Source of the DNA: Octopus vulgaris
Taxonomy: Eukaryota
Length of the DNA: 64,000 bases
Assembly (NCBI GenBank): GCA_951406725.2
Contig: OX597831.1
Coordinates: 30,876,001 to 30,940,000 of the forward strand
Direction of reading: 5' to 3'
Each line of letters starts with the position of its first letter. The stretch's first letter is position 1. Shown here piece after piece: positions 11,968-46,830 of the stretch. A program made the position numbers and the translations under genes. The notes under the pieces are model-generated. The model did not search any database. It saw only the letters and a program-made list of their open reading frames with translations, and was not told where the DNA came from.

Positions 11968-12443
11968 TGTGCGTGCGTGCGTGCGTGCGTGCGTGTGTGA
12001 AAGCGTGGAAGTTTGAACAAGACTACTTTTGTGTCCCGGAATCCCCGGAAGGTGAGGGTTGAGTCCCCTTGCAAATTCATGGATTGTTAGTTGTTTTTAT
12101 TTATTTATTTTCTTTATCTTTTTTTCTTCTTCTTATTTTTCCTTTTAGAGAATAACCGGCAGATAATCACGATCATGCTCATAGCCCTCCGGGCCTCGAA
12201 CCGATCTCATAAAGCTGAAACACACAACCCAAACCTCACGTGGGCCTCACATTGGGCCCATGGTGGCTATACATACACTTGTAATACATAAAAGATATAC
12301 AAATTGAAAGGGTGACAGGATCTGTCTCCGGGTGAAATACACAACTCTTCTTCTCGTGCGTCCTGTATAGGGATACATGCACTCATAGTTATACATAGAC
12401 ATGTAATACATAAGAAATATACGAAAAGAAAGGGCGGACTGAC

Positions 12444-13382
12444 CTGTCTCCATAGTGATAGCTGTATGCTGTCACTAGCGGTAGTTTCCGAACTGAGCAG
12501 ACCTGCCACGATTAGATGACCACTGGGTAATAGAATTCCCAACATTACCGAAACCATCCTCTGCATGGGCATCAGTGTATAGACCATGAACACAACGAAC
12601 GCAACCTCCCATACTCCTTGGATTGGTAGCGACAAATACCTACTATCCGGGTAGTAACTGTTCTGTAAGATTAGACGAGTGTTACCGGGAGTAGGGGTCG
12701 AACCGGCAACGGCGTCGTTGTTGACAACATTGGTGACCACTTCGTCCTCGAGACCGACCCGGTACGTTCCGGCCGCTTTGTCAGATGTAAAACCGGACGG
12801 TAAAGAGGGCTTCAGTATGGAAGGGTTTTCAGTGCCGCTTTGCTCGTTGCTTGTAGGGTTAGCGTTGCGGTTGTTGTATTGATGGTCATGGTTGGTTAGA
12901 TGCTGTTTATAAATTGTGTTACTGTGTCCTCTGTCTTTGTTGTTGAAGTCGGTTTGGCTTTCGAGAGGGGGTCGATCGCCGAATGGAATGGGGAAAGACA
13001 TCGTGGCAAATATGACGAGGAAAAACATAAGGACGTAACAGAGGGGTATGAAATACGTTTCTTCCATATAGCGGGTATTGATGAAGACGAAAACAGCAAT
13101 GAAGAAAAGGCATTGTAATAACAAATAGATGCTCCGAATGGTCGGATAAAGGAGGTAGAAAAAATTGAGGGCTGCCAAGCAGATTGTTAATAATATAAAC
13201 ACGGCTAACATATAACCGATACTGGTTTGCTGTAGTTTGTATATATATCTCTTGTATAACTTTTCCAGTTCAACATTATCAAACTCATAGCGATTTAATA
13301 GTCGTTTTAATCTCTTTTTCCTCCGTGACATGATATATTCCGTTGTGGGGTTTTTCCCTTGAGGTCCACCGTTCCCAGTCAT
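12444..13382 (-). CDS. rut: First coding exon (313 aa) of a transmembrane adenylate cyclase, rutabaga/ADCY1-like; N-terminus plus TM1-TM5
   Basis: Translation has RYEFDNVELEKLYKRYIYKLQQ (cf. rutabaga-type F-x-N-x-ELE-x-LY-x-RY-x-x-KLQ), then hydrophobic helices and GVWEVAFVVFMVYTLMPM, the adenylate cyclase M1 motif. ATG at 13382 is in aaaATG context, with an alternative ATG at 13331. The exon ends TGG AGA CAG|gtcagt, a phase-0 donor at 12443. The ORF-track extension to 12267 is intron read-through. The subtype is assigned from recalled motifs. Confidence 0.88.
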
Positions 13383-14389
13383 TTTATTATGACTGTTGGT
13401 TATAAATTGTAGTTAATATATATATATATAGTTTGTTTGTTTTCTTCTTACTATTAACGCATTTCGAATAAGAATTAAAGTATATATATATATATAATAT
13501 ATATGTATGTAAATATATATATATATATCCACTCAGAAGAAGAGGAAAACAAACCGTAATAATTAATAATAATAGCAATAATAATAATTAATAATAATAA
13601 TAATACTGATAATAATAATAATACTAGTAATAATAATGGTACTAGTAATAATAAACAAATTTCTCAATAAACAGAAATACAAAGAAATAATAAAGATAGA
13701 GAAAGAGAGAGACAAAAGATTTGAAACAAATCAAAAAAGAAAACAAACGGGGAGATGATGATCACTAAAGCTCTCCTCCTTCAACTTCACCTTTCTACTC
13801 TAAGTATCACTCCAGCCGCCACTCCAAGTGCCACTCATAGTTGCACTTGGAGTTACTAGTGGTAAAAGGAAGTCGGAAGAAGATAGATATTATGCCCTAG
13901 CCGCTTTTTGCTTTTTTACACCACCACAGATCACGGGATCAAAATACGCTCTTCCCTCTCTTTGAAGTCCATACGAACCAAGTGAAGAAAGAAAAAAAAA
14001 ATTAGGAAAGAAAGTGAAAGAAATAGAGAATAAGAAAAAAAGGAAAGAAAAGCGTAAGAACACAAAATTCCCAAGATATATACGCTGACCTCCTTCTGTT
14101 TTCTCTCTAGTTACTCTATTTATAGTTTCCCCTTCTTGCCCTGCCACCACTCCCCTGCCTCCTCCATCACTTCTTCTGTCTCTGTCTATCTCAGTATCTC
14201 GCACTCACTCACTCACTTACTTACTCACTCGATCACTCACTCACTCACTCACTCACTCATTCTCTCCCGCACACTCACACACTCACTCACTCACATAGAT
14301 GCACACACACATACACACGCACACACACACAAATTACTTCTCCTCTGACTCAGGCAAAAATATTCCATTCTCTGCACTACATTTACCAA

Positions 14390-30738: not shown

Positions 30739-31669
30739 AAGAAGAATGAGAATGTTACTTCATGACAAAACACCGTAATCATCAGATGAAACATAATTTC
30801 AAAAGCAAAAGAAGATTCCAAGAATACAGCAGGGACGTGGCTGAAGTCTGTTGAGGGTTACTACATAGGTTGATTTAACCTCTAGGGAAAGTTATTGCCT
30901 AGGATAGATGTAAGTAGCGTAAAATGTGTCATAATACATTTTAACAATATGAGTTGGAAAAACACAGAACAATAAAAAATATATATCCTGATATCAACAG
31001 ACACATTTGTCCAATCTCAGGCAAAATCAAAATCGTCTTTGTCCCCATTGTGACTTCATGGTAAACCTCGACAGACTTCAACCACATCTCTGCTGTATTT
31101 TGGGGATATTCTTTTGTTTGTAAAATTAAGTTTCATCTGATGATTATGGTAATGTTCTCCTTCTTCTAATGAAAAATGCGTAAGAAACGGCTGTAATGAG
31201 CTGACAATTATCCATCGTCTGTTATTATTCATTTGATTATAATACACCATAGGGATTTATGATACGTCGGACACCCTGGAGTATACAAACGAAGTACAAT
31301 CAACGTAACGTGTGCTTTGGACCAGCCAGCCCCTAGGCGCTAAATACTCATAGGCTCGGTTTTCTCCGTGTACACAACCGGAATATTTATTTGACATTTA
31401 TCAACCATAGCCGGTGGCCACAAGTTTATCCAACCTTACCTGGTGCATGTCTTTTCAAGTACCCGATCCTACCTGAGCCCTTGTCATTTTATATACAATA
31501 TGTTTTATTATGGTAGTTTTTTGCCTAGCGTGAGGCATTTATGTATTGTAATGCCCTTAATTTATTTAAGAGGAATAATTGATGGATTTTTCCCTTATGA
31601 GGTTTTTCCCGCTAACTACTTGATAAATTCTTATAAAGATTTTATTCTATTTTTCCATTATATATATAG

Positions 31670-44397: not shown

Positions 44398-44716
44398 TAT
44401 TTCTTTATTGCTAACAATGGGCTAAACATAGAGGGTACCTCGGCGGCATTTGAACTCAGAACGTAACGGCAGACGAAATACCTATTTCTTTACTACCCAC
44501 AAGGGGCTAAATACAGAGAGGACAAACAAGGACAGACACACGGATTAAGTCGATTACATCGACCCCAGTGCGTAACTGGTTCTTATTTAATCGACCCCGA
44601 AAGGGTGAAAGGCAAAGTCGACCTCGGCGGAATTTGAACTCAGAACGTAACGGCAGACGAAATACGTCTACGCATTTCGCCCGGCGTGCTAACGTTTCTG
44701 CCAGCCCGCCGCCTTA
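44398..44716 (-). mobile_element. SINE family A partial dimer with 16-bp TSD
   Basis: TSD ttgagcagcacYttct at 44382-44397 and 44717-44732. Confidence 0.9.
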
Positions 44717-45109
44717 TTGAGCAGCACTTTCTGTGTACAGAGCCAGAGCAAAAGAACAAATGGAATTTGAATGACTTAGGTCAGTTGATAAAAAAGTAAT
44801 GGCCGTTTTTGCGTTACTTTCGATATAACCCTCATGCACGTACATACATACATACATACATACATACATACATTACACAGATACATACATATTTTAGGTC
44901 AGTTGATAAAAAATTTATGCCGATTTTTTTATTACTTTCGATATAACCCTCATGCAATACATACATACATAAATGCATACGTATATACATACATATATAC
45001 ATACATATATACATTACACAGATACATACATACATTACGCAGATACATATATACGTATATATGCATATGTGTATGTAGATGTGTATATGTTTATACAAAT
45101 TCACACACG

Positions 45110-45150
<41 letters not shown>

Positions 45151-45733
45151 ATACATACATACACACACACACATACACATTTAAACACAAATGTAAGAGG
45201 AAGCAATATAGATAATCCCATAGCGAGCGGGAAGCAAGGGACAGTGAGAGAGAGAGGGTGGGGGAGAGGGAGAGAGAATAACAGACAAAGAGAAAGAGAC
45301 AGACAGAGAGAGAGTGTGGGTGAGGGAGACAAGCTGCGAGAAAGACAGACGGAGAGAAAGAGAAAGCGAAGGAGAGAGAGAGGGAGAGAGAGAGAGACAG
45401 TGGAACAACGAACTATGGTAGAAAAGATGTGAAGTAAACGGAGATGAAGTTTGGAGAATAAGTACATGTGTACTTGAAACGCAGACATCTTCCATTATAG
45501 TGATTCCCTTTAAAGACTCGTAAATATGCAAACAACAGACATACATTGACTTAGATATTCGGAACATACTAGAATATATATATACGTACGCCCGAAGAAA
45601 CACTTGAACACATGGTCCGATTTATATATAATACAAACTTAAACAGCTAAACTAATCTTCAGATAAGTAAATGGTTTAAAGATTGATTGATAGAGATAGA
45701 AATAGAGAGAGAGAGAGAGTGATAAATCGAATA

Positions 45734-45797
<64 letters not shown>

Positions 45798-46104
45798 TGT
45801 TGTGTGTGTGTGTAATTCTAGAAATAAGAGTCGTAAAATACTCAAAGACGCCACCATTTCACTAAAAGTACAACAGGCTGACGAAAATTTATAGATTTGC
45901 CCTTTTGGCCTTAATGCTTGCAGGCCGCTTATATCATTGTTATTATTTATTATTGATAATAATAACAATACTAATATCTTTATTTATTTATTTATTTATG
46001 CATATTTTATACACTGATAGCGTGTGAATTTGGCGCTGGTCGATCGACAATTTTTGCGAGACAAGACGAAGCAAATATTAATTTAACACTTACCTAACAG
46101 CGAG

Positions 46105-46161
46105 ACCTACTGATGAAAGCTAAGAGAAATATCTCAATGTTCGAAATCATGTGATATAGGT
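46105..46161 (+). ncRNA. Type I hammerhead ribozyme with canonical core
   Basis: ACCTA-CTGATGA-[AAGC..GAGA-AATA-TCTC..GTTC]-GAA-ATCA-TG-TGAT-A-TAGGT. Stems I and III are perfect; the base of stem II is imperfect. Confidence 0.72.
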
Positions 46162-46411
46162 GTATCTGTGATCTTCATTTGCGATTTTTCGATTTTCGTC
46201 AGCCTGTTGTATTTTCAGTGAAATGGTGGCTTCTTTGAGTATTTTTCGAATCTTATTTCGAGCAACGCTAGTACTCCGTGTACAATCAATTACAATTAAT
46301 AATTAATTATGAATTTATGAATTTGCCTTTTTGGCTTTAATGCTTGATGGGCACTTATATTATTGTTGTTTATTATGAATTTATAATAATGCCTTTATTT
46401 GTATATATACT

Positions 46412-46830
46412 TCAGCATGGCCGCAGTCAAATGACTGAAACAAGTAAAAGAATAAAGAGCATATCTGTGTGGTAAGATGCGTGCTTTCCCAACCACATGG
46501 ATCCGGGTTCAGTCCAACTGCGTGGCACATTCGGGCCGACCGAAGCCTTGTGAGTAGATTTGGTAGACAGAAACTGAAAGAAGCCCGTCGTATATTTATA
46601 AATATATATGCATATTTGTGTGTTTGTGTTTGTCTACTCACCATCGCTTGACGACCAATGTTGGTGTGTTTATGTTCCCGTAACTTAGCGGTTCGGCAGA
46701 AGGACAGATAGAATAAGTACTAGATCTACGAAGAATACGTCCTAAAGTCGATTCGTTCCACTGAAGGCGGTGCTCCAGTATGCCCGCAGTCAAATGACAT
46801 AAGCAAGTAAAAGACTAACAGAATAAAAGA
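46412..46830 (+). mobile_element. SINE family B (tail fragment plus internally deleted copy)
   Basis: Matches the consensus. Confidence 0.75.

Follow-up and report, generated by a model that had tools for sequence, protein, structure and literature searches.

A decayed non-coding hammerhead element of Octopus vulgaris, probably copied in trans by a Penelope-like enzyme

A Penelope-derived, non-autonomous origin has been proposed for the non-LTR retrozymes of animals, and solo monomers of these elements have been described (available part of 10.64898/2026.07.22.740005). As characterized there and in the accessible sections of PMC7229834, animal non-LTR retrozymes share with the Octopus vulgaris element reported here a type I hammerhead with a short palindromic stem III, an ORF-less unit of a few hundred nucleotides with low GC content (33% here), a self-paired fold (seen here in the majority unit) and co-occurrence with Penelope-like elements (PLEs). 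The octopus family, with its unit of about 441 nt, differs from them in being dispersed, with at most ~1.3 units per arm and never directly repeated double hammerheads; its cleavage is predicted, and a circular RNA is possible. Conversely, its two-armed insertions with two fixed ends are absent from the retrozyme descriptions in the available parts of these two sources. Two consecutive hammerheads, which define an 'active' retrozyme according to Li et al., occur in 0 of 68 pieces of the ~441-nt family and at three sister-family loci; the family is therefore filed as a retrozyme-like monomer derivative rather than an active retrozyme. Of nine Xenopus dimers, only one was cleaved (10.64898/2026.07.22.740005, same part).

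The second group of close relatives is formed by EN+ PLEs of the Neptune, Poseidon and Hydra clades, whose insertions, in the portions of PMC8557442 and PMC4209133 available, resemble ours in their pLTR, in the inverted 5'-truncated copy at the 5' end, and in the one-ended tail, (TA)n targets and terminal-repeat hammerhead. The octopus family, in contrast, has no RT or GIY-YIG ORF, its tail measures 80-100 nt as opposed to 30-40 bp, and its sequence does not match the pLTR of any coding PLE sampled in the same genome. For one PLE, Anolis Poseidon PAc, in vitro work (Frangieh et al. 2024; accessible part of PMC11167929) has shown two RT start sites, which define the genomic tail much as two sites do here. 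The PAc protein cuts and extends both strands at AT-rich DNA, so that two-armed insertions would arise from such a reaction; hammerhead cleavage is assisted by the protein and dispensable for insertion in vitro. PAc is, however, autonomous, and its start sites occupy an AC-rich stem-loop within the ORF; ours lie in AT-rich sequence. Chlamys elements such as the putatively non-autonomous MRC1 are comparable in their non-autonomy, pLTRs and head-to-tail insertions, but they are green algal, generally have a 3' end similar to that of an identified partner, and belong to a clade reported, in the available part of PMC8557442, mostly without canonical hammerheads.

The window, by which we mean the whole 64-kb stretch of O. 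vulgaris DNA that was analyzed, contains one copy of the element (L001, 45818..46398), with the following features.

45733..45813 (no strand): (TG)n microsatellite beside the inverted arm; target context, outside the element
45818..45888 (-): inverted arm, truncated at its 5' end; unit positions 233-303
45886..45983 (+): partial upstream unit (pseudo-LTR-like), tail segment Y, beginning at unit ~352
45984..46398 (+): one complete unit of the ~441-nt family; identity to the majority, counting substitutions, 89%
46097..46169 (+): type I hammerhead motif including distal stem I
46097-46100/46166-46169 (+): distal stem I
46105-46109/46157-46161 (+): stem I, ACCTA/TAGGT
46110-46116 (+): core CTGATGA
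46117-46120/46139-46142 (+): stem II, inner hairpin, with an A.C mismatch at its base
46143-46146 (+): GAAA
46146-46155 (+): palindromic stem III
after A46156 (+): predicted cut
46188..46189 (+): site of a 34-nt deletion relative to the family majority
46192..46262 (+): segment copied in the inverted arm
46290..46322 (+): inner 3'-end site, an AT-rich palindrome (unit ~331-363), where 22 of 68 family pieces end
46312..46398 (+): tail (second Y copy) and outer 3'-end site, where 30 of 68 family pieces end

In this copy the direct arm ends at the tail, covers 1.2 units and starts at unit 352; the inverted arm has 71 nt and shares a few bases with the upstream partial unit (45886..45983). An initial annotation had recognized both repeats and both are borne out: the inverted arms extend to 45818-45888 and 46192-46262 and pair at 65 of 71 nt (blastn within the window, E 6e-24), and the direct repeat (45886-45950/46312-46376) is identical at 53 of 65 positions with a spacing of 426. 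The same annotation closed the element at 46372; its actual end lies near 46398, where the full unit stops at the outer (tail) site next to a short TA run. A repeat unit of 426 nt, also proposed there, describes the spacing at this locus but not the family, whose unit is about 441 nt; the difference arises because of the 34-nt deletion after 46188 together with net insertions in the AT-rich part. This deletion takes out a splice-donor-like ATG/GTAAGT and one of the two sides of the long stem around the ribozyme. The motif common to all sister families is present at 46248-46269 in changed form.

The inverted arm falls ~30-60 nt short of the usual inner 3' site, likely through later loss or erosion of its outer end; a contig from run X3 that spans the arm and the junction continues into the missing unit sequence (loose end at 45816) and gives a hint in this direction. 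Visual inspection of the insertion revealed no target-site duplication. The window copy is a decayed fossil and a poor candidate for cleavage or circular RNA, and its activity has likely been lost. A second locus, L008, has the same inverted-arm junction as L001 (unit 232-233 joined to 352) in unrelated flanks, which would reflect either a recurrent template-switch site or the copying of an already rearranged element.

Other features of the window are independent observations. The region of the element is flanked by fragments of abundant repeats at 44416-44720 and 46410-46820, which we take to be SINE-like. At 12267-13412 on the minus strand, a 380-aa open frame matches Pfam AC_N (adenylyl cyclase N-terminus, E 6.9e-12); the hammerhead element lies ~32 kb away on its upstream side. 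At 31132-31200 (+) there is a further motif resembling a type I hammerhead, whose stem II loop is long; the stretch belongs to another dispersed family, ~80% identical, several copies of which have inverted arms (52 matches from the 40 scored of 743 candidates).

A search of the genome (2.8 Gb, 227 contigs) returned 121 matches to the window element among the 40 scored of 195 candidates, at dispersed loci. The copies form a star-like alignment with a unit of 441 nt (GC 0.33), and the family pieces have a median identity of 89% to the majority. No ORF is present in the unit and, when doubled, it shows frequent stops in all six frames. The family is thus old, dispersed and non-coding. Two exact hammerhead motifs have 5 and 3 genome matches, and their reversed controls 0; because these exact motifs are found that often at 89% identity, a rough inference suggests some tens of hammerhead-bearing copies and the absence of a young, homogeneous array of the sequence. 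At least two sister families (L096-L162), reached via loose ends of public contigs, have the same architecture with units of about 340-395 nt. All of them share a 21-nt motif with 383 exact genome matches (reversed control, 0), and the wider group is therefore much larger than the ~441-nt family. In a search of the literature by title and abstract, which mostly did not extend to subscription journals, we found no description of the ~441-nt family in octopus or other cephalopods. The kind of element is already known, as non-LTR retrozymes have been regarded as Penelope derivatives.

Some apparent features of the alignment deserve comment. The pile-up of copy starts at 46189 was rejected as an artefact of the 34-nt deletion in the window copy. 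The donor-like G/GTAAG motif deleted there is present in families A and B. Five pieces begin at unit 182-186, on a TCATTT that we take to be initiator-like; we considered that transcription may begin near unit 182 and that unit 228-233 may be a stall site.

The hammerhead at 46105-46161 is one of three type I hits in a loose motif scan of the window. It had been annotated as canonical, and its motif stands at that position, but it is not fully so: the window copy has A46117.C46142 in place of the G10.1-C11.1 pair, which is present in the family majority and described as highly conserved in the available part of PMC4209133. Rfam returned nothing at gathering score on the window and, at E<=5 on six loci, no hammerhead family, only microsatellite-driven miRNA and snoRNA noise. 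Because of this, the ribozyme call rests on the motif scan together with covariation. Among 14 hand-picked copies of two related families, 91.7% of the cells are paired and 17 show a two-sided change, with 0 of 500 shuffles scoring as high; in control alignments that were slid, 16-44% of the cells are paired. The two-sided changes come from three columns, in stem I and its distal part, and, as the families are related, they represent few independent events; the count of pairs with change did not exceed that of the shuffles (97/500). In a third family, the sequences of stems I and II and the stem III palindromes are different again. The type I hammerhead is intact in the family majority, where this covariation accompanies it. 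Under strict hammerhead criteria 4 of 33 family copies qualify (the sister-family row L159 taken out), as expected from neutral decay.

The stem III segment alone forms no hairpin, and as a 10-bp self-duplex it reaches -12.9 kcal/mol in the majority and -8.6 in the window copy. Given this palindromic stem III, the hammerhead is predicted to cut as a dimer, the arrangement being that of the dimer-cleaving metazoan hammerheads in the accessible part of PMC4209133. Folded as a circle, the majority unit has z = -6.0 relative to shuffles, and single copies have z = -2.65 (L015) and -3.89. High self-pairing of the monomer is seen in the majority unit and in L015 and not in the window copy, which folds like its own shuffles (z 0.29). 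Self-pairing does not mark the strand, since the reverse strand of the majority folds equally well (z -7.5).

Could the locus simply be a hammerhead look-alike in AT-rich DNA that underwent a local duplication and inversion? The missing Rfam match (gathering score in the window; hammerhead at E<=5 at six loci), the three hits of a loose scan in a single 64-kb window and the shuffle-like fold of the window copy are all compatible with chance. Yet such an origin does not account for dozens of dispersed copies that share the same ends, for exact core motifs found 5 and 3 times against 0 for the reversed controls, or for compensatory changes in the stems; the family data rule it out, and we assign it a negligible probability.

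The insertions were analyzed by mapping 68 family pieces from 40 distinct loci on a tripled majority unit, after seven of 75 pieces had been left out, six from sister families (L159, L161) and one from L025; L094 is possibly also a sister-family copy. Long copies are over-represented because the loci are the top search hits. Of the 3' ends, 22 lie at unit 331-371, in the AT-rich palindrome, and 30 at 420-465, in the tail, about 80-100 nt apart. These 52 of 68 compare with 20% expected (binomial p about 1e-23, for end windows chosen post hoc), while the 5' ends are scattered (11/75 in comparable windows). Of the 52 fixed ends, 33 have a microsatellite within 32 nt (20% among stretches drawn at random from the window) and 21 have (TA)4 (background 9%). 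Head-to-head inverted arms occur at 22 of the 40 loci and combine the tail with the inner site at 13 of these, two inner sites at one and two tails at one; the remaining seven have a broken or intermediate end. Both the partial tandem, the inverted arm, the two 3' ends and the microsatellite targets are thus features of a Penelope-like footprint, which in the available part of PMC8557442 comprises a partial tandem, an inverted 5'-truncated copy, a tail at one end and (TA)n targets. The insertions look Penelope-made. In the same vein, the initial annotation had read the locus as a copy slightly longer than one ribozyme unit, with partial-tandem and inverted termini as typical of PLE insertions. 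In this respect it is supported, and the hammerhead unit is non-coding: 19 of 68 pieces cross the unit junction, and no linked ORF was found in the locus records sampled. As separate observations, the 5' ends of six junction-crossing arms fall at the inner AT-rich palindrome (unit 331-352), which also forms the centre of L002 and L066.

The genome contains coding PLEs with a C-terminal GIY-YIG domain, both Neptune-like and Hydra-like. The Neptune-like PLEs, whose clade label is our assumption from the motif pattern, include many open frames of 781 codons. The Hydra-like assignment follows the CxCX5C motif, as in the accessible part of PMC8557442. The ~441-nt unit serves as terminal repeat at none of 30 GIY-YIG loci (150 scored of 6136 candidates) and none of 30 Hydra-like loci (150 scored of 12834), these 60 sampled loci being a small part of about 19,000 candidates. 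No PLE protein match was found in the 64-kb window, and among 125 locus records, some of them duplicates, the unit is nowhere joined to a PLE ORF; L136 has a weak PLE match (E 1.5e-4). As no linked Penelope ORF was found in this sample, the element is likely a non-autonomous passenger.

A competing explanation is that the copies are 5'-truncated terminal repeats, or pLTR stubs, of a coding PLE whose ORF-bearing copies fall outside the sample. Most PLE hammerheads are indeed single motifs from truncated copies (PMC4209133, in part), the unit carries a donor-like motif and PLE pLTRs have a 5'-UTR intron (PMC8557442, in part), and PLE coding fragments lie within 1.5 kb of the unit at L003, L070, L099 and L122. 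At these four loci, however, the coding element terminates in a different 3' end of its own, and (TA)n separates it from the unit; the fragments were rejected as partners and represent separate insertions at shared microsatellites. Moreover, the 19 crossing pieces all have the tail of a further unit, rather than coding sequence, in front of the unit body. We therefore regard pLTR stubs as an improbable source of the family, and favor a non-autonomous passenger of a PLE protein.

The sampled PLEs themselves offered further observations. A young family with many 781-codon open frames (L037, L042, L039, L041, L047, L055) has tandem CCAAT/TGACGT-like promoter repeats in several copies, and the 3' repeat of L039, L041, L047 and L055 contains a hammerhead-like motif with a TTGATAA core, a U3-A8 variant known from the available part of PMC4209133. 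Abundant old Hydra-like PLEs (L163-L192) have a 3' repeat with a TTGAAAA-core hammerhead-like motif and a palindromic stem III. The available part of PMC8557442 mentions Octopus only for Naiads.

The template from which the copies were written may have been circular or linear, both being sub-cases of the passenger reading. According to the classical non-LTR retrozyme cycle, the copies would result from rolling reverse transcription of a hammerhead-cut, ligated circular monomer. This would explain the 19 of 68 pieces that run through the unit junction, the arms of L002, which meet at the inner palindrome and jointly span ~2.3 units, the direct tandem of two hammerheads, 340-357 nt apart, at the sister-family loci L133, L134 and L160, and the strong self-pairing of the majority unit. 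The initial annotation had asked whether the copies are circular permutations of one unit; they are not free permutations, with 52 of 68 3' ends at two fixed sites, and not one of the 68 family pieces holds two hammerheads, which speaks against a circle. So does the limited 5' reach of the crossing arms: the furthest-reaching begins at unit 183, only 19 nt 3' of the predicted cut, and none of the 11 tail-ended ones starts before unit 331, which fits a linear template of less than two units. An uncut linear tandem transcript accounts for the same copies; both it and a ligated circle explain L002 and the sister dimers, and DNA copies cannot discriminate between the two. We accordingly place the circular template slightly below even odds. 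Among the public runs listed for the sequence none is recorded as RNA, and the four used here consist of contigs. Run X1, whose RNA origin is a guess, provided one exact contig of 152 nt on L015 and nothing on the window copy. Joints that 'go back 444-449' were discarded, as they reflect L015 being a permuted reference.

Based on the above data, we propose (probability about 0.8) that the element is a decayed, non-coding ~441-nt hammerhead element and a non-autonomous passenger of a PLE protein, likely copied in trans by a Penelope-like RT/endonuclease from an RNA of more than one unit. For the ~441-nt family, the RNA-level steps of this mechanism are inferred. A master locus would be transcribed as a tandem, more-than-unit RNA, in which two hammerheads may pair via the palindromic stem III and cut, possibly yielding a self-paired monomer able to circularise; this step is close to a coin toss, leaning against. 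A Penelope-type protein would then bind the motif directly upstream of the inner site, and AT-rich DNA would be nicked on both strands. Both ends of the target would prime cDNA, at the tail end and at the inner site, and because priming occurs from both, the truncated cDNAs could be joined head to head. At the window copy, the tail-primed cDNA would have run 1.2 units and the other arm would have left 71 nt. The copy would subsequently decay neutrally.

A more far-reaching interpretation, which we consider tentative and on balance unlikely, is that the family group preserves, in fossil form, two things. One is a Penelope enzyme that primed at both ends of a target break, using a single circular RNA cut by the hammerhead, with one cDNA starting at the tail site and the other at the inner site. 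The other is a ribozyme active only as a dimer, which selection would have maintained across three different stem III palindromes in otherwise non-coding elements. If true, it would tie the circles of animal retrozymes directly to the Penelope transposition cycle. The window copy is old and broken, and the ~441-nt family is small. Nevertheless, the covariation across families suggests that the ribozyme mattered for spread, and the anatomy of the head-to-head insertions with two fixed ends directly supports mobilisation by Penelope enzymes. These findings bear on how animal hammerhead retrozymes enter genomes and on the role of the hammerhead for Penelope elements.
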